From Takakia lepidozioides (Eukaryota > Plantae > Bryophyta): 64,000 bases of DNA. The notes below the pieces were generated by a model that was not told the DNA's origin, did not search any database, and saw only the letters and a program-made list of their open reading frames with translations. The DNA is taken from NCBI GenBank assembly GCA_030704615.1, contig CM060733.1, positions 49,724,001-49,788,000 of the forward strand, written 5' to 3'. Position 1 is the first letter of the stretch. Each line of letters starts with the position of its first letter. Made by a program: the position numbers and the translations under genes. Of this stretch, positions 4,175 through 52,679 are shown in pieces.

Positions 4175-4215
<41 letters not shown>

Positions 4216-6495: not shown

Positions 6496-6499
6496 CGTT

Positions 6500-21300: not shown

Positions 21301-24300
21301 TTGGCCGTTTTTCAGTCTCTACAAACGAAGTAAGGTCAACCAGATTCTCTTATCATTACCACCATGGTGGTTCAAGTTAATGTCTCGGTACAACTCTTCC
21401 CAATAAACTTTCTTCTGAGCCCTTACAAGCTGGTTAACATCTTTGCTTAATTGGTAATATCTAGACCACAGCTCTTTGTCATTTGATGTTACAGCAGTGC
21501 ATACACAGTGCCCATCTCTTGATCTCATTGGTCCACCAATTTACTGCTCTACCACAGACAATTACTTTCCTCCCAATGATCTTATCAGCCGTAGACGTGG
21601 CGAAACAAGCAGGAAGAGAGGTCTTGGAACGATTGGATAAAGCGTGGGAGAGCCTCATTTAAGGCCTGGACAGATTCTATCTGGACATCTTCCTTCTGGG
21701 ATTTTTCTATGCGCCACTTTCGAATAGAACGTTTCTCAGATCTCTTGGTGTTAAGAATATACCTTTTGATCTCAGTCCAGACAAGAAAGTGGTCAGAATT
21801 ACCCATATCGGTTTTCTATGAACCACCACATTGGCACAGTGCGGGAACAACTCCTTATCCACTACGAGATAATCCACAATGGACCGTTCCCCAGTTTGGG
21901 CTTTTTGACGAGTCCACTGCAAAGTGTCTTCTATGGACCTATTGCTCATGGTCAGAAGCTGAAGTTCTACCAGCAAAGTGGTATGTCTTTTACCATTGGA
22001 ATTCTTCCCATCCTCAGCCCTGTCATTGTCTTATTGTAGACCCTTGTCCACCCAGGCATTAGAGCCACCTAACAAGACATATGGCCTTCGGTGAGAACTT
22101 AGCACGGTCCAGCTTGACTTCTTCGAAGGCTTTATCTGTGACAATACCGAGGTTCCCTCGGTAGGCATGTAGACACACCCCACAAAGAGGTCCTTAGCCC
22201 TCACACGACCTTCAAAATCAGTCTCTGCCAGATATTATGTTCATGCTGAACTTCCTTGCTGCTAATTTCACAATTAATCAGACTAGAAATCACGGACAAA
22301 GATTCCCACACCTTTCTGACCACGCTTTGCACCTGCCCAGCCATTTGCTTGATGAAACTGTCCCACCTCAAATTGTTTCCTTCAGTTAGTTAGCCAAAAG
22401 AAGTTAAAGGTGCCCAGATGCAGAGCAGCTTTATGCATGTGAATTGTCTGATGTCTAGGTGGCTTTTGAATGCTCCTAGACGTCCTGCATAAAGCTGGGG
22501 GGTCTGCTTCATTACATGAAGACTTTGAGGATTGGCATGCAATTGAGCATGGCATATCCTTCATTCACTCGTTGATCAATCCCTGCACGCATAGGCATGT
22601 CTGACTCTTTTGGGAATACCCTTTCCAGGGCTTCAAACAGGTTGGAAACCTTCAGTTTAAAGTCCCCATCCTTGACTGTCTTCCCTGAGTGCCTCATTGT
22701 ATCACCAATGTCTAAGACCGCTCTCCAACAAGTCAAGGGTCAAAATTCTCTGAGATTAATTTGAAGTGTATCTCTACTTGTAGCATTCTTAGATATTGTC
22801 AACTTCAATGCACCTCTGATACCAAGTCTCCATATGGTACCTTCAACCACATGATCCACTCCTAAACTTGAGCAAGTCGTTTTAAACGACACATTTTCCA
22901 TCCTGGGATTCACTCCAGAAACTAGACAAGAAGCTCTAGGTTGGCATAAGTGACCAGTGTCCATGAATCACCCTGGGTAAGCACAAAGTTTTGAGTCTTT
23001 GGCATTTTCTCGACCGAAACCTCCCGTATCTGCTGTTTGACATCAAAACTCCAGAGGATTTTCAAGGGAATTTTCTTGCAAGCTAAAGGGTTAAACACAA
23101 GGGAAAACCTAGCCCAGGTGCCGAGCATGCAAGACAGAGCATGCAACTGCCCACTTTGAGTGGAGGGCTGCCCCCAAGCGGTAGGGATCCACTTGTTACC
23201 ATTCAGAGATCATCACTCCAAAGGAGCTGCAGGGAATGGCCCGTATACACATGTTTCAAAGAGGGAGAGGCCAACTAAATCTCCAACTAAATCCAATGTA
23301 CTACCTTACCCGAAGCAGAGGGCTTCAGGTCAAAACAAACATAGGCATGAGGTCAGGCTTTTAGTCACAGACATTTATCTACTCCACTGTCAAGTCCACC
23401 CAATGGCAATAGGCTTCCTAGTGGGCAGGGACAGCTTGATTGCACTTTTCCTTATAAGAGGTATGATTGGAGAATCAATTAACTATGCTCTTTCCTAAAT
23501 GTAGTGATACTTGCATTGTTCTTCATCTGCCTTGTCTTATCTTCTGGAAATGGTGGGTTACTGAAAGATGCAGGCAATACCAGTGTTTACTCTATTGTTG
23601 GTGTTGCAAGGTGTTGCCTTATATTTTATCTTGTTTATATGGTATAACTCGGCAGGTCCTTCAACTTGTGTGGATCTACCTGTATAATCAGATAGTTTTA
23701 GGTTGACAGGCAAATGCGGCGGGAGACCCTTCTTGTTAAAACTCATAAAAAAAGTGTGGTAAATTTGTATTGAAGGTGTGCTTTCTAGCTGGGAACCTTG
23801 CATTGGGGGCAACCAAAGGGATCAGCAAGCAGCAGGCAATGGCCAAGGGTATGCAAATCACGACGTTGTCCCTATATTTTTATCCACAACAATGTTGCTA
23901 AATCTGTTCTTACTCGTTGCTTGTTTAATTCCTCACTATGGCTACCCATGGCTATTGTTCTTACTGCAGATACTGCCACTCCAATCTTTAACGAGCAAAT
24001 ACACTTGCAGGTGCCATTCCAGGAATAGAGAACAATAAGATCCATTATGGAATGGGCCACAGGTGTAGATCTCTTCCTTCTAAACTTGTCATCATGGGGG
24101 GGGTGGGGTGTAGATGACTACTGTAAAGCATTTACCTTACCATAGCAAGAGAGTGAAGTTGTAGGAATGGAGGTTTAGCATAATGGTCTCTTTCTTTGAT
24201 ATGAAGACTGGAAAATAGAATTGTAGCTCATGGGTTGATCGCATTGATCTCCCGTCTGAGAATAGCTCGAGGATGGGTGGGGAGCTGACCATTCTGATGA

Positions 24301-27300
24301 CGTTTGATGTCCTATATGGACTGTGCTTGTCATACTGTTGGGGCAAAGTAAATCTAGAAATTGGCACTGTGAAATGACATACCAGTCCAAACTTTGGTTG
24401 ATACATGATCATTATGGTCATCACGTCAGCGTCAGCTCTTTTTAACACTTTACAAGTGACATATCACAAATGTCCTTCGATCTTTCTGGTGTGTGAGACA
24501 CCAGCAGATCAGCTCACCAGTAGATCAGCTCACCTTGGTAGATGAGCAATTATCACGAGTGTCTGAGAGCAGTGGGAAGCATGGAAGGGAATGCGTGCAA
24601 TGCCCCAAATGCAACCTGTGATTCCATTGTTAAGATTGGAAGGACCTCTCTCTCTCTCTCTCCCCTTTCGCTGGAAAACCCGGATTAATTCTATATATGA
24701 AGGTAAGTCTTACTACCAACGTCAGCCCCTGACAGAGGTAGGTTCTGTCCCTTTTGTTCCCGCTCAAACTGGGCGCGGGGTCAATGGCCACAAGGCTACG
24801 GCAAACAACATCTTATGAGTACAATCTCCCCTTTCACTGGCGACAGGGGGTCATTGTCAATCTACACAACAAAGGTGACAGAGAAGAGCTGGGGAACTAT
24901 CGAGGCATCACACTTCTCAATGCAGTTGGCAAGATATTTTGCAGAGTTACTCGTACTCGTACTCGTCTCGAGGTTCATCTGGAGTCTAGAGATTGTTTCC
25001 ATGAGGGCCAAGCTGGCTTTCGGAGAAACAGGGGCTGTGTGGATGATATATTCACTCTAAGCCAGATTATCCAGGGAACGTAGAAAAGAAGGGAAACCTT
25101 CTTTTGTCTTCATCCAACCCACTTTTGTCTCCATCCAATCTTCAGGAGTTGATTGATTCCGCGAAGAGATACTTTGAACTTTGGGGACTAGACGCTAACG
25201 TCAGTAAATGCGCAGTGGTGGCATTCGACGACCAAGGGGAGGGAGGAGGCGATCTCAAGTGGCAGTGGTGAAGCCAAGAGAATCCGGTTCTCCCTTCCTA
25301 CACTTACCTTGGCGTTGAGTTCTCCTCCAACTGTACTTGGGATGCACATATTCAAAAAGTTGTTACTTCTCTTTAACCTTATCTGGAGGACTGAAATGAT
25401 CCCCTTTCGCTAGCGTTAGCGGGTTATTGTCAATCTATACAAGAAGGGCGACAGACAAGAACCGGGGAACTACCGAATCATCACGCCCTTCAATGGAGTT
25501 GGCAAGATATTTTACGGAGTTATAAATACTCGGTAAAATTTGGGTTAAGGGTGGGTGATGCCACCATACCAGCCCTTATGTTTTCGGATGCCTTTGCAGG
25601 CATAGCGGAGACTCCTTCCAATCTCCAGGAGTTGATTGATTGCGCGAAGAGATACTTTGACCTTTGGGAGCCAGAGGCTAATGTCAGTAAATGTGCAGTG
25701 GTAGCATTCAACGACCAAGGAGAGGGAGGAGGTGATCTCAAGTGGCAGTGGGGGAAGCCAAGAGATTCCGGTCGTTCCGTCCTACACATACCTTGGCATT
25801 GAGTTTTCATCAAACCGTAATTGGGATGCTCCCTTGCTCCCTTCTACAAAAGAAAGCTAATAGAGTTGACTGTAGATGCTGGACTTCTCCTCCTCCTCTC
25901 TGCAATCTACTAGGATAGCACATCAACCTACATGCTAGAAGAAATGCTGGGCATTGCCTCAGCCCTTCCCTAAATCCTACACAGGTTCGCTGGAACGTTC
26001 TGGTGGGAACCATCCCTAGCCATTCTAATTGCTGAGCAGCTCATACACAGCAGATTGACGCTTGTGTGAAGGGCCTTCTAGAGGTTATCTGGAAACCCTG
26101 AACTAATTGTTTATACCAACCACTACTGGAGTGAGTCCCTAACAAAGGTAGTGTCTGTTCCCTCTTGTTCTGTCCAAACTGGGTGTCGGGTTTATGGCCA
26201 CAAGGCTCCGGCAATTAACCTCTTATGAGTATGTTCTCGAAGTTTGGTTAATCTTTGATTGTAAGGCTGAAATATTTTGGCTGACTCTTCACATGTTGAC
26301 ACAGAAACCCAGTAAGTCTACAGCCTGTGTCGAGAACTGATGAAGTCAGTGGGAGTTACAACAGCTGTTCGCTGTTTTACATGAGATAGTCGATTTGTCT
26401 CGTATTCTTGATTGACTCTTTAAGTTATGAGCAGCATTCTTTCTAGTTTCCTTCCTCTTTGTATTATTTTCTTCCATCTCTTGATGTTTTATCCTCATGT
26501 TTTTGTTTTTCTTACCTTGGATGTTACTGTCATGTTACCTCTCATATGTGAGTTTAAAGTTTACTAGGCTCTCACATTGAGATATGGTAAACCTTACTGA
26601 GCAAAGAGCTTGGTTGGCTGCAGGTCTTTTGAGTGCAAATGCAATCCAAGACTTAAATCTGGCAGAAGACTTGGCAAGGACATGCTATGAGATGTATGAG
26701 GTCACTGCCACAGGTCTAGCACCAGAGATTGCCTACTTCAACTTGAATGTAAGTGGCCAGTTGTCATTCTGACCTGCATTAGTTGATTCAGTGTTCAATG
26801 ATTTCCAGACCTCTTGAGGGACACTCCACTCTGTCCTCCTTTTCAAGCAACAGTCTGATGGGGCTGGGTACTGGGATGAAGACTTTCCCTTAAACAACAT
26901 TTTCCCCACGTAGCTTAACAAAGAAGCAGTAGGAAGTCAGTGGGGACACTAGGTGGGCAAGACGTCAATAAGGCAAGAGGCTTGTCAGGATGTTCTCTTA
27001 AAACTATGGTCTGAGGCCTAGGTAGGAATAAGGTTCCAAGTTGACAACCTCTCTCTGTGAAAACTAAAAAGCAGGTGTGGGTTGCAGCAGGGTAAGCTGA
27101 ACGTGGAGGGAGGGAAGCCAGATGCTTTTTTTAAGCATGACATCATCATCAAACCTGCTGATCGTCATAACCTTCTTCGCCCAGAAATGGTTGAGTCACT
27201 ATTTGTGTTATATCGTATTACTGGAGACTTGAAGTAAGTGCCTACATGCAACTTGTCACCTCTCTGCAAGAATGTGTTAAAAAATCTGCTCTGAGAGTGA

Positions 27301-28385
27301 GATAAGCATCTTCCTCTACCAGAATTACTTGACAGATGAACTCTTGTATCAAGGAACGTGGTTCATGTCATTATGGTTTAGTGTGATCTTAAGAGCGAGA
27401 TAAAATTGTCTGTACCATATCATATTGAGTACAGGGTACCACTGTAAATTGTCCCAATGGACAAGCAAATAGGGCCATCTGAAAATGAGGAAGTGTTCAC
27501 CACCGGAACGGATGACTTCAGTTGTTGGATAATCACTGGGCCCCTCCGTGTGCCAGGCGCCGAACATATAGCTGGCGGACATCCTAGCTCTAAATGACTG
27601 CATTGGAAGCATCCACCTTAATGTTAGTAGCAGTCTCTAGATGTTTGCCACTCGGAGCTCTCAGTGCTCTCCACCTTTCCAGGTGTTAAGTGACGAGAGA
27701 AAACCTTTCCTCTGAGTCCTAGTACTGTGCATTTATTAGCCTGGGCAGCCTTTTTCAAATCAGTGTTTACCAATACTTTCTGGGTATGCAATGAATATGC
27801 TCAGTATTTGCACAGTACTCAGTGCAAATAATTTGTCTAGTCGCAATGTTTTGCAAAAACACTTATTTGTATCGTATTGTGCTCACTAAACTGTGCAAGA
27901 TGGCCATCCATCACTGCTTTAAACATGCTGTGAACTACACTATCACCAGTGTGGCCAGTTGGTTTACCTGTGAGGAATCCTGATGCCTGGATAGTTTAGC
28001 CCTCAAAACTAATCTGTTTGTCCGCAATGACTTGTGGACAAACATGTTAATGTGTTTTATGCACCACGTTTTCTGTAGGTACAGGGAATGGGGTTGGAAG
28101 ATTTTTCAGGCTTTTCAAACCCACACCAAGGTCATCTCCGGTGGCTATGCATCTCTTGATGACGTGACTATAGTGCCAGCCCCAAAGAGAGACAAGATGG
28201 AGACATTCTTCGTTGGAGAGACTTTGAAGTACCTGTATTTGTTATTTGGGGACACTAATGTGTTGCCGTTAACTCACTTTGTGTTCAACACCGAAGCCCA
28301 CCCACTGCCTATTATATGGCAAGACAATGGGAATAGGATCAATACTGTTAGCCAAGACAACACAGGTAAGAGCAATTCTAGTTGA
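15396..28385 (+). CDS. MNS3: Class I alpha-1,2-mannosidase (GH47), ER-type/MNS3-like. Exons: 15396-15473, 16265-16570, 17227-17487, 17894-18309, 18564-18831, 23776-23848, 26624-26748, 27088 or 27091-27233, 28079-28385
   Basis: The N-terminus [26 protein letters not shown] is typical of plant MNS3, followed by a TM anchor. GH47 motifs: [44 protein letters not shown]|[50 protein letters not shown]. All introns are GT-AG with consistent phases. Confidence 0.93.
19107..22240 (-). mobile_element. Degenerate LINE (APE endonuclease + RT) in MNS3 intron 5
   Basis: Endonuclease motifs SIVDYLVVD and SDHFLVW. RT motifs WRQGVIV.LY.KG....[16 protein letters not shown] and ALMFADDF. Many stops and frameshifts. 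The 3' end is shared with the copies in intron 6. Confidence 0.88.
24725..26231 (+). mobile_element. Stacked fragments of the same LINE family in MNS3 intron 6
   Basis: ORF 24754..25083 repeats the WRQGVIV...NYRGITLL...QAGFR block. The LQELID...ANVSKCAVV block occurs twice (~25140, ~25620). The 3'-end motif caaactggg...atggccacaaggc...cttatgagta occurs at ~24765-24821 and ~26175-26231. Confidence 0.85.
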
Positions 28386-29540
28386 ACTACATAGTTATTT
28401 ATTATTATTTATTTATCACATTGTCAATGTTATGCATTTACAAGGCTGCTTGTCTGTACAAAGAGGCCTTAGCTTGTGGTAAATGAGAGACCTGTCTTTG
28501 GACATTTCCACAAACTGAGTATTTTTGTGGAAATGGATGTATCAAGTAGCTCGAATGTTCAGGGGTGCAGTAGACTGTCAGCCAACAAGGGTGGGGTACC
28601 TTGCCCAGCCGAAAGTGGGTAAGCATTTTCCTGCTGTGATCTGAAAAAATCAAGTGAAGCCAATTCTGCTATTTGCTGCACATCTACTACCCATTGATCG
28701 GTGTTGATTGATAAGCAGGCTTTACGAAAGTTCAATAAAGGCTTTAATGCAGACTTGCCTTTTTGGCTGTTCAAGGTATATAAAAACTGCTTTCTAGTTT
28801 TTTTTAAGGTATCTAGTATCCACCAGTGTCGGGCTGGTATATAGGGCCCGGCCTGGTATCAATCCCGTATTAAATAACCGACCCGGCTGGTACTGGCTGT
28901 TGTAATAGTAGGGTGAAGAACAGGACCCCTTGGTGACGGCAATTCCAATATCTAGATCAATACTCTACCTAGGCTGGTATTGACAAAGGCAATACCTGCG
29001 CAATGGGTAAAAATATTGACCCTACACATGGTATAGGCCCCCCAATGCTCTTCACTTTTTAGCACATGTCAAGTTGTGTCTACATATCAACTTCATCCTA
29101 GCAAAATATATAAATGATATATATATATATATATGTATATTTTAAATCGAAGAATGTAATGCATTACACCATCAACAATTTTAATTTGTGTATGTCATTT
29201 TTCATTATATTTTCAAACAATTCAGTCATGATGTATGGTACTCAACCATCACTAACACTTACATTGAGTAATTCAAAAAATAAGAAAAAAAACACTTACA
29301 TGCCGGACTCCCAGCCTTAAGATAGTGTTTTTTTTGTTTTTTGTTTTTAAGAGAAAGGGGACAGAGTGTATTTTCGTACTTTCTATAATTTTCCATAGAG
29401 TCTAAAAAGTGTATGGCTCAACAAGAGAAACCCTAAATGTGAGCCTCATCGTCTCCGAGTGCGAGGTGGTGTGGTGTGAGGATCGAGGAGACAGAGGATC
29501 GCACGCAGAATCGAGACAGACACCAGTCTTCCAAATCGCG

Positions 29541-30687
29541 ATGCCGACGCTGAATGTGCACACGAATGTACCTCTGGATGGTGTGGTAACATCCGACATT
29601 CTCAAAGATGCCAGCAAGGCCGTAGCTCGGATAATCGGCAAGCCGGAATCTGTCTGTTCACTACCTTCTCAGCTCGTTTTCATGTTCTCTTCCGAGTGAT
29701 TGACGTAGACGAGGTGTTGCGGGTTTGATTCCGTTAACGTAATGGATGGAGATAGATTTGAGTTTGGGTTGGGAAGTGGAATGCACGTCTGTCGGACTCT
29801 CTGTGTAAAGTTCCGAAGTGACAGGATTTGTGTGGGGGATGGTCGTTGTGGCATTTTTATGCCCGCAGTATGTTATGGTGTCGCTCAAAGGTGGAGTGCC
29901 AATGTCGTTTGGAGGAAGTGAGGAGCCAACGGCATATGGTGAGCTCGTGTCAATTGGCGGGCTTGGGCCAGATACAAACAAGCAGCTGAGTGCAGCTCTT
30001 GCGGAGATTTTGAAATCCAAGTTGTCAGTTCCTCCCGCACGTTTTTACATCAAATTTTATGATGTCAAGGTGGGGATTCAATCTCACTGCTCGACTACTA
30101 TTTCTCCTACTAATTTTCAGTGCAAATCTGTGCCGGAGCTTGGACATCTGAATCGTGGTATGTGCGTGCATCTGGGCATGTGGTATGGTTGTGAGGCAGG
30201 GTCAGTCATGTACTCAAAGTACCGTGTGCATGCATGTACTTCACCAGTAGATTGAGGGCTGAGGCAAGCCTTGTGGAATTTAGCATACAGAAGCCACCAA
30301 AATCTTGTAGTCAACCTCGTCGCATCTTGCATTTCGGTAAGTCTATTGCTCTCCCAAAATTATGAGCATTTTTCCTGTACCTTATACATCCTCAGTCGAC
30401 TGGAACCCTCCATCCTCTCCTTGTTTCATGTAAATAACATCTTGGGTTGTCATTTGGTTGTAGCTTTGTGGCCTATCAATTATCCTCTCAGTTCCACATG
30501 CTCACATTCAAATGATTTTTACGTATATGAGTTAAACTTTTATTGTGGATATGGATGATTGACTCCAGAACCAAGGTATCTAACTCATGTTTTATTCTTC
30601 CGGATAACCAACCCCCTAAATCCTCTTGTTGCATTGTGTTGGAATGTGCAGAGGACTGATTTTGGCTGGAATGGCGCAACATTCTAG
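29541..30687 (+). CDS. Macrophage migration inhibitory factor / D-dopachrome tautomerase-like protein (plant MDL), 115 aa. Exons: 29541-29651, 29869-30069, 30652-30687
   Basis: MPTLNVHTNV...IIGKPES|YVMV...MSFGGSEEPTAYGELVSIGGL...RFYIKFYDVK|RTDFGWNGATF*. Catalytic Pro follows the Met. GT-AG phase-0 introns. Confidence 0.95.
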
Positions 30688-32216: not shown

Positions 32217-32316
32217 GGAGAATTTGTTTGAGGAGATGCTTCAGGAGAAAGAAGAGATTGCTGTGAAGCGAAAACGTTGCAAAGAGATACTGCGGGTGCT
32301 GCAGCAAGCTGCATGG
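32217..32316 (+). pseudogene. Isolated exon of a dynamin-related protein 3 (DRP3) GTPase effector domain
   Basis: ag|(R)ENLFEEMLQEKEEIAVKRKRCKEILRVLQQAAW|gt matches the DRP3 GED exon. No neighbouring DRP3 exons were recognised. Confidence 0.65.
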
Positions 32317-38752: not shown

Positions 38753-39361
38753 GGCCGCTTCTTCTCTCACCACAACTGAACCCTTGCAAACACACAACAC
38801 TCTCTGCCATGGCGATGGCGATCCTCTCAAACCCTCTCCTCCCTTCTTGCACCTTCGCAAACCTTCCTTTATTTCTCCTGCTTAACCCCTAAAGGACTAA
38901 CCCCAAATTTTGGGTCCACCCCCAAAAAATTAACCCTTCCCCACTAAATAATTTATTTCTTGAGGTTTCCTCAGGCCCTGTAAAACTGACCGTTGGGGGG
39001 TCAAATTTCCCAATTTCAAACGGGCAACCACAAAACCGTATTAGAAAATTCGGTGAAAATATCTGAACCGTTGAATTGTCAATCGCTCTGGTTGCACTGT
39101 AGTGGGCAGGTTTGTGTAAGCACAAAAAAACGTTTGCGCCAATCAGAGCTTCCCTTCATATGATTTGTGCCCCTGCCCATGACTTCTCTATGGCACCTAC
39201 CGTCCCTGGACAACGGATTAGGCGATAATTAATTCAAAATGAAAGTGCCTAATCAATTTTGTGAATTTTTCAGATTTTTCATATTTTTCAGATTTATGGG
39301 ACCAAAGTGCCTAATGCCCAAAAATTCCACCAATGTTGTTTGGAAAAATAAGAAAGCTCCG

Positions 39362-39492
39362 TGAAGATAAGACGGACCAGGTGTCAAACTAAACTTGACA
39401 CCTGATTTAACACTTGACCTAAATCCAAGTGTTAAATACAAACAACTAGTTTTATGCTAGTTGTTTTCACACTGTGCTTATTTAACTTGACA
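39362..39492 (-). repeat. 3' terminal repeat core (131 bp, TG...CA); the full 3' LTR probably starts at 39579
   Basis: Identical to 50714-50844. The PPT-like tract lies 87 bp further inside, directly before TGTGGTAG. Confidence 0.85.
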
Positions 39493-39838
39493 GCTGTCGT
39501 GCGCATACATATCGCTACACAACTACATCGCTGTCCAAACCACATCACACATATATGCACAATAAAGTAGTCTACCACAATCGCCCCCCTAGCTGGTGGA
39601 TAGGTCCCTCTACCTCCAGATAGCTACAAGACGTAATAGCCATAGCCGTACTAAGTCTTGTATCACTGTCCCTATCGTACTCAAACTCTATAGACCAAGA
39701 GGCCGGGTACAAGAGTAGCCCCATCGTTAGTCGCCGTCTTGCAATCTGTGAACTTGAGCCAGGACTTCGTGTATTCAAGGTCTCCTGTAGCTGGGCCTTG
39801 CGTTGCTTGTTAGTCTCCCATGGTTGTATCCACTCCCA

Positions 39839-41110
39839 CTATCCAATGCATTGTGGACATAACCAATCCCCATCTGGAACCATCTCAAGAAGTGGAGTCA
39901 AGCACCCCATATGCCAACCTCTAGAGCATCGATCCCACATCAGCATGGTGGCTGCCCCTTTAGCAGACCCACACAACATGCACCTCAAACCTGCAGATAC
40001 CACTGTCAGGTTTGGGTCAATCCTGCCATCGACATTCGGAAGGTGACATGGCGCACAATTACGCACATGGTCCTTCCAAGTTATCCCATCCCGACCCTCC
40101 AAGACCAAGACGCCTGAGGGCAAGACCTCTCGAACCCTCAAAATAACACGTCCTGCAGTCACATCCAGGGTCGTAGGAGCAGTCTGCTGCAGATAGACAT
40201 AGTCACCAGGGTTGAATCTCCGAACCCCAGGACGATAGCCCCCACCACGTATGGTAGCATACCTCAACGTATCACGGTGTTGTGCAATGGCAAGGTTCTC
40301 GAAAGCCATGGGCATGACTCTCTTGAACAACTCTGCACGCTGCTCACATGCACATGCCCACACGTCCGGATCGTCAAGGTTAAGAACTGTAGCAGCTTCT
40401 CTGCGAATGGATGTAGGCAAATCCGGCTCTCGGCCAAAGAGAAGAAAGTATGGTGAGAAGGAGGCAAGTGATGCTTGCTTGCTGAACCTGTAGCCCATGG
40501 CTAACCAGGGTAACTGAAGGTCCCAATCTCCTAGGTGTCCCTTCTGCAAGCCATACTTGCGCAAACCCCTCTTTACTGTCTGAACAACTCTCTCTGCCAA
40601 GCCATCGGCCTCAGGATGATCCGGAGAAGTGGTGCGGTGGTCTATCAAGGCCTTGTCACACAAAGCCTGAAACTCCCCCAAGAACTCTCTCCCTTGGTCC
40701 GTGAGTACCTCAGCCGGAGCACCGAATCGGCTAAGCACACAATCCAAGAATGCATACGCAGCTCCCTCACTAGCCTTATCAGGCAATGGAACCAATTCAA
40801 TCCACTTGGAGAAGTGCTCCACCATCACCAACACGTACTTGTTGTGGCGCATGATCAGTGGCAACGGCCCTGCGAAGTCAAGACTCCACCTGTAGCCAAT
40901 CCCATGATCGGAAGAGGGTGCAATTGTGGAGTAGGGGCGTTGAATGAAGCACGCACCCTGTCACACACCATGCACCTAGCCACAAATTGTTGGACCTCTG
41001 TGTGCATTCCACGCCACCAATACTGCCCCTGCAGTAGGCTATGGGTGCGTCGCACCCCAAAATGCCCCAACTCCTCGTGGGCATGCCGCACTAACCGTGC
41101 CCGCTGTGTT
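39839..41110 (-). pseudogene. Integrase (HHCC, DDE core) with C-terminal PHD finger; one frameshift near 40880
   Basis: HEELGHFG...CMVC; LDFAG, LTDQGREF, AERVVQTVK; FNPGDYVYL; then CMLC...WDRC...WHMGC...WLCPQC (C4HC3 with the third Cys changed to Trp). Confidence 0.9.
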
Positions 41111-42813
41111 GGGTGAGGCACAATCCTCACTCGACCATCCTCCCACACTCGGAGCAGGTGTGTCCCCTCCCACTTGAACCTCTTGGCTCGTTGTAGGATC
41201 CGATCCCTCTCCTTGGCAGTCACAGTGGCTGCCGTGTCTCCACTGCGGAGGTAGTCCAACACAACTGAATCCTCATGTATATCTTTGGCGCCACCCTGCT
41301 CATTGCTGGCCTCAGGGTCCTCAGACACTTGATCTACAGTCATCCCTGTTGTAGGTCCAACCTGGCCTTCCGCTGCCAAGATACACAGAAATGCAGATGC
41401 ATGCCATCCGGGCACCATCTCCTCGTCCGTCTCACCATGCCACCGAGCTCCAGTGTCATCCTGCTGGCTCGTGCATGGATTGCGACTCAACCCATCTGCA
41501 TTTCGATTGACCAAACCCGGTCGATGCACCACCTGAAAGTCATACTCTTGAAGGATGAGTGCCCACCGTGCAAGCTTCCCCGTAAGCTTGTCTGACTCCA
41601 TCAACCACTTGAGTGGTTGGTGATCCGTGACAAGGGTGAAGAGATTGTCGTATAAATAGCACCTGAAGTGTGCCACGGCCCACACTGCAGCTAAGCATTC
41701 TCCCTCATATGAGCTATACTTAGACTCTGCAGCATTGTTCAAGCGGCTAGCATAAGCCACTACGAACTCTCTTCCCTCATCATCCACCTGTGTGAGCACC
41801 GCTCCAAGCCCCAGCATGCTCCAATCTGTATGCAGCTGAAAAGGACGCCCACTGATAGGTCGTCTCAAGATGGGCGCCGAGGTCAACCTCGCCTTGAGCT
41901 CTTGAAAAGCTTGTTCTTGCTCATCTTCCCACTGCCACTCCTGGTCCACCTTGGTCAGCTTGGTTAGAGCCTTTGCAATGGCACTAAATCCCTTAACAAA
42001 CCGTCTGTAATAGTTTGCTAACCCCATGAAAGCTCGAACTCGGCTCACATCCGTGGGGCGTGGAACCTGTGCAATGGACTCTACCTTAGTCTGCTGTACC
42101 CCCAATCCTCCAGGATATATCATGTGACCCAGATACTCAATCTGGTTGTGGAAAAACTTGCACTTGCCCGGATGTAACTTCAATCCGTGCGTCCTCAAGC
42201 GCTCAAATACCCCCTGAAGGTGTCTCTCATGCTCCTCCACCGTAGCACTAAAGATGATGATGTCATCTATGTAGCACCGAGCAAACTCCACCCCTGCTAG
42301 AATCCTGTCCATGACTCTTTGAAACTGAGCGGGGGCGTTTTTAAGCCCAAATGGTAAGAACCGCCACTGGTATAGGCAATCCTTCCCGTGCTCATTGATC
42401 CCCCAGAATGCCGTCTTTTGCTTATCCGCCTCATTGATCGGCAACTGGTGATATCCGGATCGTAAATCCAACGTGCTAAAGACCTTGGAATGCCCAATGG
42501 CATCAAAGATCTCCTCTGGTGTTGGCATGGCATACCTATCGGACTTGGTCTGACGATTTACAGGCCGGTAATCACCGCACATACGTCTCTCCGTCCAATT
42601 GCCATAGACATCCTTCTTAGCTGACATCACTGTGGCTGAAGCATACTCTCCACCAGAGAGCTCCACCAAACCTGCCTCCCAGAGATCTTGAGTCCTCATC
42701 TGAATCAAAGACCTCTCCATGTCACTGTATCTATAGGGTCTCCGAAAGATTGGCGTGTCAGTGGCCAACTCAATACGGATCTCTTGACCCTTCAGTGCTC
42801 CCAAGTCCTTCAA
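41110..42813 (-). CDS. Gypsy reverse transcriptase + RNase H (open part of ORF 40855..42813)
   Basis: RMCGDYRPVN, LDLRSGYHQL, PFGLKNAP, YIDDI, YLGH, LHTDWS, YSSYEGECLA, TDHQPL, NADGLSR. Confidence 0.95.
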
Positions 42814-43284
42814 ACTGAAGGCAAAGCAATTCCTGTAAGCCCTCAGGAACCGCCGTATATGTCGTCTCTCTCCTCCGGTGACAATGGGTCCAATGTCAGG
42901 CTCCCAATTGTCCTCCGTAACTGCAACCTTAAGTCCAGTGGGCTTAGAGGTAGAGGACGCGTCCCGTGGTTGCTATGCTGCAACCTCTTGAGCAGTACCC
43001 CCTTCCTGCTCAGTCAATGACAAGGCCTCATCCTGCCCCATCATCTCATCATTGAGAACCTCCTCATCCCGAGAAGAATCCCCAACCTCATCCATCACAG
43101 CTGTCTTCGCTGCCAACTCCCTCTGAACCTCGAGCACCTCCCACATGTGCCATGGATGTCTACACCTCGTGGTCCTCACCGGCTCGCCCCCACTCGCTGC
43201 CTGTACCGTCTCGGTAGGCAGAGAGACCGTCAAGGGAAGTGCACTCCGCACTCTACGTTGCTCAGCCATAGCCAAGCTGACAAT

Positions 43285-44225
43285 CCAGGTCAAGCAATTG
43301 AGATCCATTGCTTGCCCCAACACCTGACGACGTGATGCCTCAGAAAGAGAAGGCACCGCCGTGGTCCCAGTGGAAAACCCCATAGCCCGCTCTCGCTCGT
43401 CGGCATTAGGCTCCACTAACTGCTGCAACTGAGCATCCCACAGGAGGCCAGGTCCACCATCCCGAAAAGCATGGGATCCTGGGAAGCTGAGCAGTGTAGG
43501 TAATGCTGCTCGTGGTTGACCCACCCTGTTGACCACTGCCAAAGGCGAACGGTCATCGTGTCTCACACATTGAGACTGCCTTCCTGTGTCCAAAATGCCA
43601 TCCACGGTGAGGTGTGCTGGCCGCTGCACCCCATCAAATGCACGCTTGAGCAGTGCGGGTGGCATCAAGTTAGTCCACCATAGTCGTGGACGATGAGCCC
43701 GTGACCCCACTGCAGCTGCATCCAGCAACACTGCTGACCCAAGCCACGACCGGACTTGATGCACACTGGCCATCACCCTGGCCCGAGAATCACCCATCAG
43801 TGGTACATTCTCCAAGATGTATGCTGGAGATACAGCTTGATGAAGCTGCAAGCAGCGCAAAATCCGCACCATCTCCCAAAACAGACCCGTCCTCGAGTCT
43901 CGCAATCCATTGCCATGCCCGGCTGATGAATGCTCTTGGCAGGGCCAACCTGCCACTATCAGATCAATGGAGCCAACCTGCTCCAAATTTTGCGCCCCCA
44001 ACAAGGAATTGTCTGCTGGCAAGGCTTGTTGGTATCCACGAACTGCAGACACAGGCAACAAGTCAGGGTACTGCTGTACCAACTGAGCCACATGGCGCAG
44101 TGAGACGCGTCGTGCAGTCTCATCCCTCTCCACATACAGGTAACGCCTTACCCGCAACCTGCCTGTAGCACAGCAGCCAATCCGGTGCTGATCCCGCCAA
44201 ACAAGTCCAGAAGGCAAATGCCTTC
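43285..44225 (-). pseudogene. C5 DNA-cytosine methyltransferase domain inside the retrotransposon polyprotein; one frameshift at ~44155
   Basis: Motif I LLDLFGGISTG; II YLYVERD; IV DLIVAGWPCQ (catalytic Cys); VI YILENV; VIII AHRPRLWWTN; IX ERERAMGF; X RQVLGQA. Confidence 0.92.
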
Positions 44226-44776
44226 ATCCGGCCGCTGCCACACAAGAGGTGTGGTGTCCAATGGCGACAACTGAGGTGGCCCTGGTGCAATCACCGCACT
44301 CTCCTCCTCTCCTGACGGTACAAAAGCTTCTTCCCAAGCTTGTTGCACCCGTCCATCAGCAGCTTGCTGCAAATCCTTGCTCGTACCCCACAACGGGGTG
44401 TGAGCAACCATGGCAGGCAACTCCGCCGTACCATGCATGTCATCCTGCTCTGCTGGAGGTGGCACATCCTCTGCATGGGCATTGCCTTCCAGCAACTCTC
44501 CAGGCCAACTAACGCAGCTGTGAAGGCGGCTAGTGTTGGCATCTTGCCCCGCTGGGCAGCTGCAATACCCCCAATGAATGTCACAGGGAGTGTGCACGGC
44601 GACCATCCCCTGACTGCCATCCAGGCCTGTAGGATGCTGACTCCTCCCAGAAATCCAGGGTGAAGCCCATGGGGTATAACACTGCCCCACCAACGAGGAC
44701 ATCGTAAGAGACCGCGTCTGTCACAATGGCCTTGGCTCGCATCACTGAGCCATCTACAGGATGATCCGGCTGCAGT

Positions 44777-45142
44777 CTAATAGCCCAACTGATGCCGTGT
44801 CATGCCGCGAGCCTGCTCTGATCCTCCCAGAGATGTCTGTATCTGGAAAGGACAAGGCTCCATATCCGCCTCCATGAGGCCCAAACCTGCAATAGCAGCT
44901 CTGCCCAACATCAGTGGCTGAGCTCCTGAGTCCAACAAGACCCGCAGTGGCCGGTACTTCTTGCCTACCGGTCCACTCAAAGTGAAAATGCCTCTCTGGT
45001 TGTCTAACAAGACAACTCCAGGTGTCACCATGGCGCGCTCAATGGCTGGCCTAGCTGGCAGCTCCGTCAACCTGGCAGCTGCAACTTGCCATGGCGCAGC
45101 CGTGGCAGTCTTGACCCTCAAATCCGAGGATCCCTCTGCCAC
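44777..45142 (-). pseudogene. Retroviral-type aspartic protease
   Basis: RVLLDSGAQPLM catalytic motif downstream of gag. Confidence 0.85.
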
Positions 45143-45148
45143 TACACC

Positions 45149-47170
45149 TTACACTAACTCCGCAGAAGATGAAGTGACCTCCCCACTCTCACAGAGTGTT
45201 GCTGCTAGTCTGAACACTGCAGCTGGTCTCACCCCCGGCGTCGCAATCATTGTTGCCGAGAACAGTGGGGCCTGACACACAGAGGTGGCTGCCCCCAATA
45301 ACACACCGGCCGCACTAGCCTTGGCAGCAGGAGTCAATGCTGCACGTGTAGCTCTCCCCAATGGCACAGTAACCTCCGCCTCGGTAACAGTCGGGCGAGA
45401 ACTAGGTGCCATGGATGGCGTCGACACAGTCTCCGCCAATGTGAATGACTGAGGAAGCCTTGCCTGACGGCTTGCCTCCCACGTTGTGGATCCAATTCCA
45501 CCTCTGCACCTCGTGGCTCAGGAACTCGTGCTGCTCCTCGAGTCACGGCTGCAGCAGACTCCACCTGCTCTAGTGGTAGTGCTGCTCCGCACATAAATCC
45601 CATGCCTCCCATATCTCCTCCCTCAGGAGCAGGAGGTGGACCATCCCACCTGGGAGCCGGTACCACCTGAGCTATAGCCATGGCAGCGAGCCTTTGCTCT
45701 AGCTGCTGAAGCCGGTTGGCCATGCCTTGATCAACGCCCTGACCTCCGCGTCCTTGGCCATGTTGAGCTTGCCTTGGCCTGCACCTCGTGCCCGACCACC
45801 TCGTCCTCTCTGGGCTGGTCCACCTCGCCCCCGGCCACCATTGTTCCCTTGGAACTGGCCTGGGCGCAACTCAGGATGCAAGTCATAACACTGGGCATCT
45901 CCATGCCCATACTTGCCACAATGCCCACATTGCAACTGTGCAGGCTGTGCTTGTGCCGGCCTTCTGCCACTCTCTGGGCAATCTCTCTTGACATGGGGTC
46001 CTCCACATGTCCAACATATCACCCCTGGTTGCTGTTGGCCTGCAAAAGATGCCACGGGCCTCTGCACCTGAGGCCCCCTGTAAGCTCCATGGAACTTGGG
46101 CTGGGCAACCTTGCCCCCCTGACCACGCTGTTGGGCAGTCCCTTGTGCTTGTGGGCTGACAGCTGTGCCCCGTACATGCATGTCCTTGCCAAATCCAATT
46201 GTAACAACTCGCTCCTCCACCATGTTGAGCTCAATCCGCTCAGCCAGCAGAAACACATCTGCTAATGTGGGTTGGGCTGCTTGTAACAGGGTTGCATCTC
46301 GCACCCTTCTCTTGAGCTCCTTGTCCAGAATTCCATACCAAAACTGGATTGCCTGAGCTTCAGTAACCCCTTGGGTCACACTTATCAAGCGCCTCATACG
46401 AGTGTACGCCTCTCGCAGGCTCTCACTGGGTTTGCGCTGGAAGTCTTGCAAACTTCGCAGCTTCTCTGTCCGTACACCTTGGTAGTTCCTCCGCAACTCC
46501 TGGAAGAACTCCACCACCGGGTTGAATCTAGGCACATGTGTTGTAGTTGTGGCAGGAGGAGTAGTAGCACCTTTTGAACTGGTACCACCTGCAGAATACC
46601 AGCACTACCTGCTCCACTACTAGTGCTGGCAGTGGGAGCTATTGGTACTGATGCAGCTACTGGTCGCGTCGTGCCTCGAGTAATGGAGATGTAGTCAGGT
46701 GACCAATACATCCTCCACTCCTCAATCTCTGCTTCATGTCCTCGCCTGAACTCGTGGTAATCGTCCATAGGCGGGCCTTCCAAATGCTGGAACAGTTCCT
46801 TCCACGCCATGAATGGGGTGAATAGCTGTGGATTGCGCATCTGCTGCAAATCACACCAGCTGTCGAACTCCTGGATAAAGTCATCCAACTCGATTGTGCC
46901 CACAGCTCCAGAGTACCTACGAGGCCCCTTGGTAGCTCCATACATCTCCTCCATGTCGTCCCACAACAATGGCGAATGAAAGTGCACACCTGTTGATGAA
47001 GCCTCCGAGTCTGTGTCTGACTCTACAGTAATTGAGGGTGGCGGTGAAGGTGGTCTGAACCGAATACCTCGTCTTGTGAACCCACTCTCACTGTTACTGC
47101 CTGTAGCCGTACTCCCCTCACCACCCTTGGGTAACTCCGTAATGACACTCACAATGTGCACCTCCTCCAC
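45149..47170 (-). pseudogene. Gag (capsid-like region and two zinc knuckles), frameshifted
   Basis: YSG....LDDFIQEFDSWC; LQDFQRKPSESLREAYTR; CWTCGGPHVKRDC and CGHCGKYGHGDAQC knuckles; RG-rich tail. Confidence 0.85.
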
Positions 47171-47689: not shown

Positions 47690-48523
47690 CTATGCTATCA
47701 ACTGCCAGACTTCTCTCAAAGTGCCTCGCTCTGCATGATGGTAAGGTGTAGGAGGTATATCTATGTCCAGAAACCTGCCACTAACCTTGTCCCAAGCTAC
47801 AGTAGCTCGCTCTAACCAACCCTCCTCCTCTTTCTGCCAGGTAGAGACAAAGCAATACTCCCCTATCTCCCACTCACTGAACACTAAAGAAAACAAAGGT
47901 AGGGTCTGATAGTCTCTCAACTCGAAAGCTTTGAGACGGTTGCGGGTGTCCTCATTGCGAATGACTGCATCTCCTTCACGCACAACAAACATGTCATTGC
48001 TGATGAACCCCCGCTCGTGGTTGCCCTGTGCAGAGCGTATCCGGCTGCAACCATGTCTGATTGCACAAACTTGTGTAGCTCCTGCTCCTCTGCTCCAGTA
48101 CACCACGGCCTTGTGACTGAACACCTTGGTCCCCGGGGCTGTCTTTGGCTGTGTTCCAAGCCTAGCTTTCACCCACTTTGGTATTTCACCTACAGCTGCA
48201 GAAACTGCTGGCTCCAACAGAGTTCTGACTGTCCAAGGCGATATTGAGGCCCTCAATGCCAACTACAGCAGTTTGTTGTCTACTGCTAATGCCTGACTCC
48301 CAGTATGCAATCAACTCGTCCAACTGTTCTCCACTCAAATCAGTCTGAGTTCCTTGGGAAACATAAATCTTGTCCCATTTGGTGCACAGGCTAAGAGAAG
48401 AGACCTGCCCTTCAACGACGTCATCATTTCCCCCAGCCATACAAGGAGTACATCCACAGATTTGTCTCTAATATAGACCAGCACAGGTTCTAGAGACAGG
48501 ATTGTGGATCTTTCATGGCACAC
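47690..48523 (-). other. Unidentified accessory ORF upstream of gag; the last 190 codons are open, the 5' part is interrupted
   Basis: ORFs 48335..48523 and 47690..48262 are in the same frame and separated by stops. Composition looks globular. No family recognised. Confidence 0.4.
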
Positions 48524-50484
48524 TCACACTCTAAAAATTCCATAGATTTTTAGCAGAGTCCCAAAAACAGAAACTAGATAGGTAGATTTCCCCTTTCTGC
48601 AGATATCCCCTCAAAAACTGAGTCAAACGGAGCTCATTTGACAAAGATATGACCAACCAGGCTCTTTAAACATTTAAATTAGATCAAAAAGGTTTTTTTT
48701 TTTTTTAACACCAAAACGCTTTTGCCATTACAACCTGTTCCCAGGTTATCTACGAGTTCCCGAGGTCGTTCCCCTCCAGGATTCTCCAGGCACCAAGAGC
48801 TCGTTAATTCCAACACTCGACCTCAGTTGGGTGGGGTATCACGATTTGCTTTCTCTGCGCGTGGGCCTGCCTCCTCGAGACCTAGAGACTACAAACCAGG
48901 AATTGGAGCGATTGGGGGAGCAGATGCACTGCGCAGCACCTTCATGGCTTATGGACAGGCGGCCTGCTGTGATGTGGCCGTCTTTGCATGGAATCCAAAG
49001 CCAAGACCAGCTTGAAGTTCCATCAACTTGGTCTAATTCGCATCTCTCGCCAACGATTATTGTTGGCTTAGAATGGTTTCCGCCTTCCTGTTACTGCTCG
49101 TGTTTGCTTCAGTGTGCAATCTACAGGTCAGGGATCGGCGACAACAGGCACCAGATTGCCCCGTCACCACCCCCACAAGGCACAGACGACTTCACTGCCA
49201 GGAAAAAGAAAGTGAATCATGCTCAGCATGTAGACCCAAGGCCTGGGTCCATCTGCATCAGCTCCAGTATAAGAGAGACAATCATATAGTTATCAAGTCT
49301 CTACAGGAATTTGTGATTGCCTCAGTAAAGTGGAACTCAATCTGCAGCCTCCTTCCGCCGCCTCTCCATCAACCCTTGGAGGCTCTCGTCCGCTGGCCTC
49401 ATCCGTCAGCATTGCTTCTCCTGCTACGAGTCTTCGCATTTCCTCCCCTGCTCGCCTGTGCAGAAGTAAGTACCCTTGACGCCGAAATGACAGTAGAGGC
49501 AAGTGATCAGTTGGAAGTGTTCAATGATGAGACAAATAGAGCTGGAGCTCCCTTGACCTGTATCGCCACAATCTTGGACTCGGGCAGTGTGCTGAGTTGA
49601 AAGCTGGGTTGTGAACCACCATTCGACTTTCCACCAGTTTCCACATCAAAATGGTGGAACCAAGGTGCAAGGCAGCAACAGCTACTTGGCTTTGTACAAA
49701 CCTGAAGCACTTAAAAAAAAACGAAAACGACTTTGCACCTTGCACTCTCCGAAATCAACAATGCCCCCAACAACCCTTTTTGTCAGAAAGTTGGTTGCTT
49801 ATGCAGATAATCGACCAGGTGAAAGCAGCTTTCCTAGCCACAATCACAAGTAGCATGAAGATTTGTGAGACTCCTGGTTTTGCAGTGTTGATGATATGCC
49901 AGCAATGGGCTCCCCGTTCTCCATCGCTTTGTGCTAGGCTTTCTCTCTCGGGCCCTGCACCTTCAACCAGCTCGCTGCGCCATGCTCTACCTGCCGGCGC
50001 TGCATTTACTGGAGGGAGCAGATTTACAGCTCCTCCTTCAACTGGCTCCGCTACACCAGCTCCACCTGCTCTTCCGCTGCCTTTCCTGACCGCTTCTGGT
50101 CTATCCTGGTTTTAATTTAACACTGGTCTGTGCACATCGAACTAAGGCGAGCAGCCCGGCCATCTCCAGGCACGGAAGTTCTACCCATCTGCTCCTCCTT
50201 TAAGTCTCGCACTTGGTCAGTTTCCCAATGGCCAATCGCTGCTACTCCACGATGTCTCCTCACCGACCAAAACAAAGGCTGCTTCCATGCAGTGTAGCTC
50301 CATCATGCCCGGCGGCCTCATGCCAGAACCAACGCTGATCGAAACCTGCATATTTTGTTTTGTTTTTTTGTTTTTTTTTTTTTAAGCTTCTAAAACTAAG
50401 CACTACTTACACACAGGTAATCGTACAAGTGCTAACCCTCAACTCCTACCTTGCACTCACAGGTAAGAGCTCATCTCTCTCGAG

Positions 50485-50844
50485 TGATAAGAAAGCTAAA
50501 AAATGACACTGCTCTCCACACAAGAAACAATGTGAAATCCAAAACCATCACTCTTTAAAACAGTAGTCGAGCCAGGGGCACCCCAAGCTATGGGGACTCC
50601 ACCCCACAACAACCTACACTCCCATCATGAGTACACTCAGATCTAAACGCACACAGGAGCTCGGTCGCGCAGGCTCAACTCGAGAGAGATGAGCTGCGCG
50701 ACTGCCGCTCTCGTGAAGATAAGACGGACCAGGTGTCAAACTAAACTTGACACCTGATTTAACACTTGACCTAAATCCAAGTGTTAAATACAAACAACTA
50801 GTTTTATGCTAGTTGTTTTCACACTGTGCTTATTTAACTTGACA
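50485..50844 (-). repeat. 5' LTR remnant: 131-bp core at 50714-50844 plus a putative U5 ending ...TTATCA at 50485
   Basis: The core is identical to 39362-39492. The CA at 50486-50485 is followed by a 17-nt sequence complementary to 50679-50695. Confidence 0.65.
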
Positions 50845-52679
50845 AATAAGATCAAAATTTCTTTGAACAAAAATCAATACAAATATATGAGTGCGGAAAT
50901 AACTTCCTACAAATCGCAATCTATTTGGGAGAGCTCCGTGTAACTTCGAAAGGCCCTTGCATGGACTCGACAATGTCATCATATTCATCATCCTTGCTAG
51001 TCCTCATGATCTCTCTATCTACTCGTCCACCACATTGAGATCAAGGATATCCTCATTTTCAATATGATTTGCAAAACATCTACACATAGTTTCCCCTACA
51101 CTAAGATCAAGGTAGATATGAGGGATATCACTGATATCCTGAGTGATTGAGCATTCCCCTCCACCAAATCATCATTCACTGCAAACAAATTGGTTACAAA
51201 ATTTGCTCGCATATTATCGTCCCCCTACCAGCCTGCACCAATCCCACATATAAAATTATAGTGTGTAAGAGTGTGTAAGTGATACTCACATGTGTGGAGT
51301 CTCCACGTGCCCCAATCCTGTACAACATGGCCCTTGTACTATTCTTAAGAAAATAAATGTTTTCTCTTCTCATGTGCCTAATTCTAAGAAATTCAATTAT
51401 AGCATGAAGATGCCTAATTTGAGAAAATGTTTTCAAAACATGCCTAATTTTCTGATTGATTGATTTTATTATTAGGCGCAAAAATGCCTAATCCATTGTC
51501 CATGGACGGTATGTTTGCCTATACTTTTTGGCCAGTAGCCCTAAGGTATGTGGGTTTTGGGGGGGTGCCATTGCCTGCCAATGGGGGGTGCAATAAAGGG
51601 TGTTGGGAGACACGCCACCCTGTGCACATGGGGTGCCTGGAATTTTCCCCTAACCTGACCTTAGTTGACACGTAATATGGAGGGCAGGTTAGCTACCCAA
51701 AATGGGGCTGATAACCACGAGTGTGGCAGACTCTAGGTGTTCCACGTGGTTGGGGCCAGGCCCAATGACGAATTGGAAAATGCCACCTCATAGCTGACGC
51801 GATTACCTCAATGACCCTAAACGTGCCCAAATCAGGCTTAACCCCAATGATAACCAGACATTTTTCTAAACCTAACCGACCCAATTTGGGTCGCTTCGTC
51901 CTTTAGGGGTTAACAGTCGTCCATGGTTTCACGGCCCTGCTCCTTATTTTTTCGGCCTCCGTTGCCTTTTCCAAACACAAAAAAAAATGCACAACAGGTG
52001 CATTGGCCTGTGGGTCTCGGGTTCAAAATCCCTATCATCGGTTTCTCTGCCTTCGGGCTGGGGCTCTAACTCAGATTGGGGGTTATATTCCCCCTTAAGG
52101 CCCAATTGCAGGGCAGGGAAGGCGTGAGACACCTTAGGCCCCGCCACTTATGTAGTAGGTAACAGATAAATTAATAAGAATTTCTATTGGTTCACCTTTG
52201 GCCAGGCTATCTGAATGATTGGAGGCAATTTTTTTTTTTTTTTTTTGGGAGGCATTCATATATTTACCGATGTTGTGCGGGTTTCAGCATTTTAATATAC
52301 CAGGCAGGAGGTATGGTAGGCTCTAGAGGGGTGCTTTGTTTTTGAACTCTGGTATCATTCTAAGTATTGCATAATGACAAATTTGCAAATAGTATACTGG
52401 TATAAGTATTTCCCTCAGAGATATACAATAGGAAGACAATAGGAATAATGTAAGAACTTACTGGATGCGTGTGATCTGACAGTACTTTCGCCGGATTCCG
52501 GCAACTTGGGCTCCTCCGGTGGGGCCCCTGTGAAATCCTCCCCACCCCCTCTTATCTCATTTTCACTATTAAATACTTAAGAATCCAAGTGGGTTGCAAG
52601 CTGTGGTGGGTAGTAGGACGGTAAGGTGATAGCATTGCAAGCGGCGAGGATCAAGGTTCGATTCGCAATGGGAGGCTCT

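Follow-up and report, generated by a model that had tools for sequence, protein, structure and literature searches.

Why should a retrotransposon of a land plant carry a DNA methyltransferase (DNMT) of its own? DNMT-bearing retrotransposons have so far been described from two algal lineages. The initial annotation of the locus considered here named precedents in dinoflagellates and in Klebsormidium, and the accessible text of PMC5890265 does describe both; PMC12344493, in the portion available, repeats the streptophyte and dinoflagellate cases. A literature check on land plants, which the annotation had called for, found no report of DNMT-bearing retrotransposons within a coverage that most subscription papers, theses and Repbase entries lie outside, and the available portions of PMC10952607, PMC12513842 and PMC6453930 hold nothing on retrotransposon DNMTs. 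What kind of element is this, how would its enzyme be made, what might the enzyme do, and where did it come from?

The window, by which we mean the whole 64,000-nucleotide stretch of DNA analysed, contains a decayed Ty3/Gypsy element on the minus strand, at 50844-39356, with seven frame breaks. The Pfam domain order is gag, protease, DNMT, reverse transcriptase (RT), RNase H, integrase and PHD finger, the gag and protease matches being weak. Gag, with CCHC-like knuckles and a frame break near 46600, lies at 45858-46954 (Retrotrans_gag, E 0.0012; 77% and 58% to Marchantia Mp4g09160); the aspartic protease, with LLDSGA, at 44789-45100 (Asp_protease_2, E 0.018, below the cut-off; 46-61% to Marchantia); the methyltransferase domain, with a frame change near 44155, at 43270-44219; RT and RNase H at 41542-42588 (RVT_1, E 1.5e-32; RT_RNaseH, E 5.6e-35); the integrase zinc finger and core, with a frame break near 40895, at 40613-41112 (Integrase_H2C2, E 1e-16; rve, E 5e-15); and the PHD finger, at the integrase C-terminus, at 39848-39982 (PF00628, E 5.6e-08). 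The annotation's assignment to Ty3/Gypsy holds: the order protease-RT-RNase H-integrase and a Ty3-like RT are present, and the best PDB match of the RT reading frame is Ty3 Gag-Pol (E 3e-76). The Pfam scan of the element's frames found no chromodomain, the PHD finger standing in its place, unlike chromoviruses such as Tcn1 and Chlamyvir; and in the 14 frames scanned there is a DDE integrase (rve) and no tyrosine recombinase, unlike DIRS/PAT elements. An Rfam search gave no match. Alignment with Marchantia and other relatives places six frame changes in the stretch from gag to DNMT and one in integrase, so the window copy is a dead element. At these breaks the contigs from other copies read differently from the window, and the breaks therefore look copy-specific.

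Several features lie apart from this coding core. The leader carries a lower-copy insertion of about 1.6 kb (48710-50347) with a T-run and AA on either side; its depth in run X1 is 592-926 (48904-50166), against 57,000-290,000 in bins wholly inside the element, and run X5 has contigs that match a portion of it. A 190-aa open frame (47690-48262, minus strand) sits in the family-level part of the leader, has no Pfam match and found no counterpart among the related loci fetched; the leaders of L004 and L022 hold an unrelated 133-aa frame. Some DNA copies lack about 570 nt inside RT (window 42248-42819; the joint is seen in runs X1 and X4) and are possibly a non-autonomous subfamily. Elsewhere in the window, at 14331-14627 (minus strand), there is a weak integrase remnant (32%, E 8e-4).

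Is the domain a credible cytosine methyltransferase? C5-methyltransferase motifs I, II, IV, VI, VIII, IX and X had been noted in canonical order, and all can be located by positions computed from the reading frame (all minus strand, with the usual numbering I-X). Motif I, LLDLFGGISTG, lies at about 44219-44181, at the end of the ORF 44148-44720. The remaining motifs follow the frame break near 44155, all in the ORF 42973-44223 and in canonical order: the E of motif II at 44130, GWPCQ of motif IV with its cysteine at 43941-43939, ENV of motif VI at 43812-43804, AHRPR of motif VIII at 43698-43684, ERERAMGF of motif IX at 43398-43375, and LGQAMD of motif X at about 43320-43303. The PF00145 profile, proposed earlier as a check, matches at 48.5 bits (E 1.1e-12) against a cut-off of 22. 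An AlphaFold model of the part after the frame break (43249-44157) has a pLDDT of 92, and all 34 of the Foldseek matches listed for it are DNMT3A, B or C (top E 2e-15, TM 0.67). A family profile built from 21 sequences, run against PDB sequences, finds DNMT3A at E about 9e-22, DNMT3B at about 9e-19, DRM at 4e-9 and M.HhaI at about 8e-8. The domain is DNMT3-like, with DNMT3A/B as its closest solved relatives, a class given by similarity rather than by a rooted tree.

The annotation had set the domain apart from the host's own enzymes, and rightly so. The motif order in the window is unpermuted, as stated, in distinction to DRM, and Pfam reports no chromodomain insertion of the CMT type. Compared with plant DNMT3, DRM and CMT as treated in the accessible part of PMC6453930, the domain shares the C5-methyltransferase fold and a DNMT3-like motif order, but is intronless and lies inside a polyprotein. 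The SAM-binding motif I, the catalytic cysteine, ENV and RxR are kept in the aligned rows of the window, Marchantia, Calypogeia and Klebsormidium nitens. The residue before the catalytic cysteine is E for P in the loci of a second family (clade B, below), in Closterium, in Cymbomonas and in a Chrzof1 protein.

How would such an enzyme be expressed? The domain had been placed between protease and RT, within pol. The first half of that statement stands and the second does not: the DNMT closes the gag-protease reading frame, which ends at an in-frame TAG (42975-42973, minus strand) before RT. The stop is followed by CAACCA (together 42967-42975), an instance of CARYYA, which the accessible text of PMC3441728 gives as a known readthrough context, and RT resumes in the same frame. 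Related loci come from a metagenome search, whose best 80 of 234 stretches include 33 close loci (58-69%), some partly identical to a Sphagnum fallax protein. The stop site is covered by 27 of these, 24 of them distinct, and the stop is present in 24 of 24 (19 TAG, 5 TAA), many being copies of one Sphagnum-like family, so that the counts are not independent. Relatives also end their first reading frame here: Marchantia Mp4g09160 and Mp8g17980, and many further relatives, are gag-protease-DNMT proteins with about 80-170 residues beyond the domain, and in K. nitens GAQ93235 there are 12. The conserved stop and these first-ORF proteins together indicate that in the window's branch the DNMT belongs to the abundant first ORF. 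The UAG would occasionally be read through to give RT-RNase H-integrase-PHD and the methyltransferase, lying before the stop, would be produced and enter the particle at the Gag level, in excess over RT. Such dosage is not universal in the wider family, because in clade B and several other relatives the DNMT runs into RT without a stop. Clade B, at 35-41% in the same contig sets as the Sphagnum-like family among those best 80 of 234 stretches, was seen among L027-L080 (e.g. L034:5559-14873 and L044:5196-14865), with DNMTs that read GWECQ and with A-B-A-B ends of the kind described below.

Might RT and integrase be reached past the stop by splicing or re-initiation instead of readthrough? The question touches expression only. 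Some Marchantia and Sphagnum gene models (P0004, P0005, P0009, P0012 and P0035) join DNMT to RT and skip the stop region, but these are automatic predictions. The six letters after the stop are exactly CARYYA in two of the 24 loci, plus the window, and CAACCC in 20; in Sphagnum-like copies CAACCC is often followed by an ATG, which speaks for the alternative. Against it, the window, L002 and L029 have the exact context and no ATG there, and in the window, as in most close loci free of breaks, the frame is the same on both sides of the stop. In run X5, guessed to be RNA, one contig spans the stop without a gap and another DNMT bin is without cover. We regard splicing or re-initiation as rather unlikely, and readthrough remains our working model.

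What, then, is the enzyme for? On balance it seems probable that the Gag-side DNMT methylates the element's own new cDNA in the particle before integration. The first ORF would deliver many DNMT molecules into the particle, where the enzyme, released by the protease, would act on cDNA not yet in a chromosome, probably at CG in the manner of DNMT3; the cDNA would arrive already marked, and the mark would either hide it from host surveillance or commit it to its own silencing. There is a precedent in SymbioDIRS-Dnmt3 of Symbiodinium: in the accessible text of PMC5890265, the DIRS DNMT3s methylate CG de novo, and de Mendoza et al. propose cDNA methylation for these elements. The same text gives further likenesses, a Dnmt3-type domain in a retrotransposon, A-coding-B-A-B repeats and a domain that can occupy either of two places in the polyprotein. 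It also gives differences, in that SymbioDIRS is a tyrosine-recombinase element with neither DDE integrase nor protease and of independent origin. Some observations speak against cDNA methylation. The KnitGypsy-Dnmt3 domain of K. nitens had no activity in yeast, a result that its authors, in the available text of PMC5890265, call inconclusive; and the proline before the catalytic cysteine is replaced by glutamate in several branches.

Could the enzyme instead work separately from reverse transcription or once it is over, its target being either the chromatin into which the element inserts, selected by the PHD finger, or the host genome in trans? In DNMT3 enzymes a PHD-like ADD domain provides the guidance, and the family does bring DNMT and PHD together. 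In chlorophyte relatives the DNMT domain follows RNase H and so adjoins integrase; of 214 proteins examined, 50 have the full RT-RH-DNMT-INT order and 41 the complete RT-RH-DNMT-INT-PHD. Elements of this chlorophyte type, with DNMT between RNase H and integrase, include P0086, P0170, P0421, L040, L057 and L071. In window-type elements however the DNMT is encoded before the stop, together with Gag, and is not fused to integrase, and CG is no more depleted in the element (o/e 0.38-0.63) than in host introns (0.36). We think an action on chromatin or in trans unlikely. A role other than DNA methylation, such as nucleic acid binding, RNA methylation or a structural part in the particle, strikes us as improbable to the same degree. 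The negative yeast result and the P-to-E change may be read in its favour, Gag-level amounts would suit a structural function, and RNA methylation is raised for LINE DNMTs in the accessible part of PMC5890265. But motif I, the catalytic cysteine, ENV and RxR are kept across the family, and the nearest solved relatives are DNA enzymes. Methylation of the element's own cDNA is the reading that we carry forward.

The ends of the element raise a related question, that of how the cDNA is primed and integrated. In related loci the ends have the form A-internal-PPT-B-A-B, where A starts TGTCA and B ends (C)GACA; A-internal-B-A-B is complete in L022, L034, L036 (3' part), L044, L050 and L072. The window, on its minus strand, follows this plan as far as it goes. 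A1, of about 359 nt and starting TGTCA, occupies 50844-50486; its first 138 nt are 99% identical to 39356-39492, contig depth is high in bins 50167-51008, and its end was set at the start of the primer-site match. The polypurine tract (39581-39593) has near-identical counterparts before B in L004, L012, L022 and L036; B1, defined by repeat comparison and ending ACGACA, follows at 39580-39495, and A2 (39492-39356) breaks off after its first 138 nt. With the remainder of A2 and all of B2 gone, the window shows the tract and the TG start but offers no readable target duplication; the duplications come from related loci. Four-bp duplications are exact in four of the six loci with both ends (L022, L034, L044 and L072, with two candidate B ends in L034 and L044, of which the one matching the duplication was chosen), agree in three of four letters in L050, and are absent from L035. 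The inner meeting point of B and A is the palindromic CGACA-GC-TGTCA (39488-39499 in the window), a predicted integrase attachment site. Close, distant and chlorophyte-type loci all have examples of this junction; it lies within 1.3 kb after the PHD finger in 11 of 22 loci, one a loose match, and is found also in the distant loci L057 (chlorophyte type) and L067. In one contig, from another copy, A runs at its end directly into the start of B. With permuted ends in place of two identical flanking LTRs, the element is an atypical member of Ty3/Gypsy. A 133-nt repeat pair was considered as canonical LTRs and rejected, there being no target duplication and no tRNA primer site, and the polypurine tract lying 87 nt before it; an odd junction in L024 was likewise rejected as a circle junction and looks like an internal deletion.

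Directly after A1, at 50468-50485, is a primer-binding-site-like sequence without the tRNA-type TGG start. It is the exact reverse complement of 18 nt within A1 (50678-50695), the predicted RNA 5' end, and the best of 1000 shuffles reached 10 nt; L022 (17 nt) and L034 (15 nt) have the same arrangement, near +164 of A. Across six loci the match beat the shuffles in two, tied in L050 and did not beat them in L004, L044 and L072. The arrangement fits self-priming, so that reverse transcription would start from an RNA fold-back, as is reported for Tf1/Sushi and Tcn1. The available text of PMC6317226 describes Tf1/Sushi and the plant Tcn1 chromoviruses as lacking a tRNA primer site, as predicted self-primers and as present in mosses; they differ from the window element in canonical two-LTR ends and a chromodomain, where it has split repeats, a PHD finger and a DNMT, and that text makes no mention of PHD, methylase or Marchantia.

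How might permuted ends arise in an element with an integrase? The A-internal-B-A-B ends, the 4-bp duplications and the palindromic B|A junction together suggest integration from circular cDNA. The cDNA would close into a circle with its repeats joined, and integrase would cut at the internal palindrome, leaving TG...CA ends and permuted repeats; if the LTR is taken as B+A, a two-LTR circle cut at the upstream B|A palindrome would give exactly A-internal-B-A-B. Split direct repeats of the form A-coding-B-A-B also mark the PAT, TOC1 and Ngaro elements and are thought to come from a circular intermediate; those elements integrate by a tyrosine recombinase, typically without target duplication, whereas window-type elements have a DDE integrase, TG...CA ends and 4-bp duplications. 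In the literature covered, integrase elements with split repeats were not found beyond a figure legend in the accessible part of PMC5890265.

What is the ancestry of the element? The domain matches 70 long proteins, of which 14 carry the name Marchantia polymorpha (up to 73%, with some loci present in two annotations), one Sphagnum fallax and two Closterium. The best 120 of 269 shorter matches include Calypogeia fissa (four, up to 74%), Sphagnum troendelagicum (two), M. polymorpha (two), M. paleacea, Riccia sorocarpa and a Chrzof1 model, presumably Chromochloris from its label; no vascular plant, hornwort, Physcomitrium or Ceratodon is named among these best 120 of 269, which is weak evidence of absence. 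Thirty representatives were looked up, the named ones being K. nitens GAQ93235, three Closterium, Scenedesmus, Cymbomonas, Calypogeia and Marchantia. The best 80 of 234 metagenome stretches include loci in which the domain follows RNase H, and a viral contig search gave three weak loci, none with retroelement domains. The DNMT and RT comparisons that the annotation had proposed agree: the DNMT tree (support 99.5, from a fast search) and the RT-RNase H tree (99) make the same split between protease-DNMT-RT and RT-RNase H-DNMT-integrase-PHD, both trees being midpoint-rooted and drawn without a host DNMT3 outgroup. The protease-DNMT-RT side holds the window, the bryophytes, Closterium and, in the DNMT tree, K. 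nitens; the other holds Scenedesmus, Chrzof1 and many others, with Cymbomonas placed there by its DNMT. No paper on the chlorophyte-type elements was found in our literature search. One old capture in green plants, followed by one move of the domain, would likely account for these patterns.

The annotation had left two origins side by side, a streptophyte lineage kept in an early-diverging land plant and an independent capture. The first gains support and the second does not. K. nitens GAQ93235 has the same gag-protease-DNMT order, with 39% identity to the window over 300 aa, and its DNMT falls on the window's side of the 99.5 split, in an unrooted tree with weak deep nodes and with no K. nitens RT for comparison. 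The signatures AHRxRxWWTN and ERERAMGF are shared, and the split-repeat ends are those reported for KnitGypsy-Dnmt3. A bryophyte capture unrelated to the Klebsormidium element might be argued from the identity of only 39%, from unsupported deep streptophyte nodes in the DNMT tree and from the missing outgroup and K. nitens RT. The common domain order, signatures and ends and the congruent RT and DNMT splits all stand against it, and we hold it to be very unlikely. The window element most likely belongs to the KnitGypsy-Dnmt3 lineage and not to a new capture. The accessible text of PMC5890265 gives KnitGypsy-Dnmt3 a Gypsy domain set with an unpermuted Dnmt3-like domain, a DIRS-like repeat structure and purifying selection, all as here. 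It differs in describing the capture as one in the K. nitens lineage, from a survey with no liverwort and no Sphagnum; in counting 33 DNMT genes in all in K. nitens, against a high-copy element in a land plant; and in placing the DNMT in the Pol ORF, where the window DNMT ends ORF1 before a conserved stop. That text is without PHD finger, target duplications, palindromic junction or self-priming, though its Fig. 4c may show more domain detail.

Within bryophytes the history is less simple. Element proteins are 67-81% alike between mosses and liverworts, against 60-64% to liverworts for the host protein MNS3, and Sphagnum-like copies group with Marchantia, apart from the window and against the host tree. 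Recent horizontal transfer between mosses and liverworts was rejected, as synonymous sites are saturated; old transfer or old paralogues remain as candidate explanations of the Sphagnum-Marchantia grouping.

Is the methyltransferase a trait of the family and of this host? Summed contig depth in run X1, which is not copy number, is 171,000-261,000 over the DNMT bins and 151,000-200,000 over the RT bins, with 1,155 and 1,506 in the flanks; depth that is alike over DNMT and RT and far above the flanks shows that the family is highly repeated and that its copies carry DNMT as often as RT. Between the window DNMT and five close loci, pN is 0.19-0.23 while synonymous sites are saturated (pS 0.73-0.75), which shows long-term purifying selection on the domain; the corresponding RT values are unreliable for frame-broken loci (L003). 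Among recent Sphagnum-like copies the DNMT dN/dS of 0.5-0.8 looks as expected for decayed copies and lends selection no support; in the second family the ratio is 0.09-0.35.

The host genes of the window speak to the remaining point. A spliced gene for MNS3, a GH47 alpha-mannosidase, was traced by exon matches and a tree at 15396-28386 (plus strand), and a spliced MIF/tautomerase gene, its exons read from the sequence, at 29541-30687 (plus strand; PF01187, E 7e-14). For one MNS3 exon the best named matches among the 120 of 439 listed are Ceratodon (73%), Physcomitrium (71%), lycophytes (69%) and liverworts (65-66%). A 27-protein tree, with 26 of the proteins chosen from 120 listed matches and with no algal or hornwort row, joins the host to six moss-like rows at 99/99 as the first branch among them. 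These matches and the tree mark the host as a land plant, as the annotation had it, and likely an early-branching moss. That the domain is a one-off insertion, or that the contig is chimeric or an algal contaminant, is scarcely conceivable, and nothing was found in favour: DNMT and RT depth is even in runs that hold the host genes as well as the element, the same architecture recurs in dozens of loci, and the spliced, moss-like host genes lie in the same window. The surroundings include an isolated exon-like piece of a dynamin GTPase effector domain at 32218-32316 (plus strand; PF02212, E 2e-06), 1.5 kb after the MIF gene, near which no upstream dynamin exons were recognised. Dispersed direct and inverted repeat families lie in the MNS3 introns (19103-26238), and a 500-nt inverted pair (3879-4389/6507-6999, 75%) lies within 3632-6999. 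CG is depleted across the whole window (1-64000; o/e 0.27-0.83), the long MNS3 introns included, and CWG mostly is not.

The KnitGypsy-Dnmt3 type is, then, present in land plants, here amplified to many copies, with the DNMT on the Gag side and with ends of an unusual kind. Bryophyte DNMT3 counts and transposon annotation are confounded by such elements, and tools that seek two identical LTRs may miss them or cut them wrongly. The arrangement at the stop predicts the place and amount of the enzyme, and the ends predict an unusual route of integration. The question of purpose can be tested directly in Marchantia polymorpha, a genetic model that offers methylation mutants as well as naturally unbroken gag-protease-DNMT frames (Mp4g09160 and Mp8g17980). 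Taken as a whole, the picture would be of one ancient Ty3/Gypsy clade, running from chlorophytes through charophytes to mosses and liverworts, that packages its own DNMT3, at the Gag level in the bryophyte branch, primes itself, and has a DDE integrase that cuts circular cDNA at an internal palindrome. That every part of it is right we think doubtful, and we offer it tentatively; if it is, land plants would receive insertions already methylated by the transposon.
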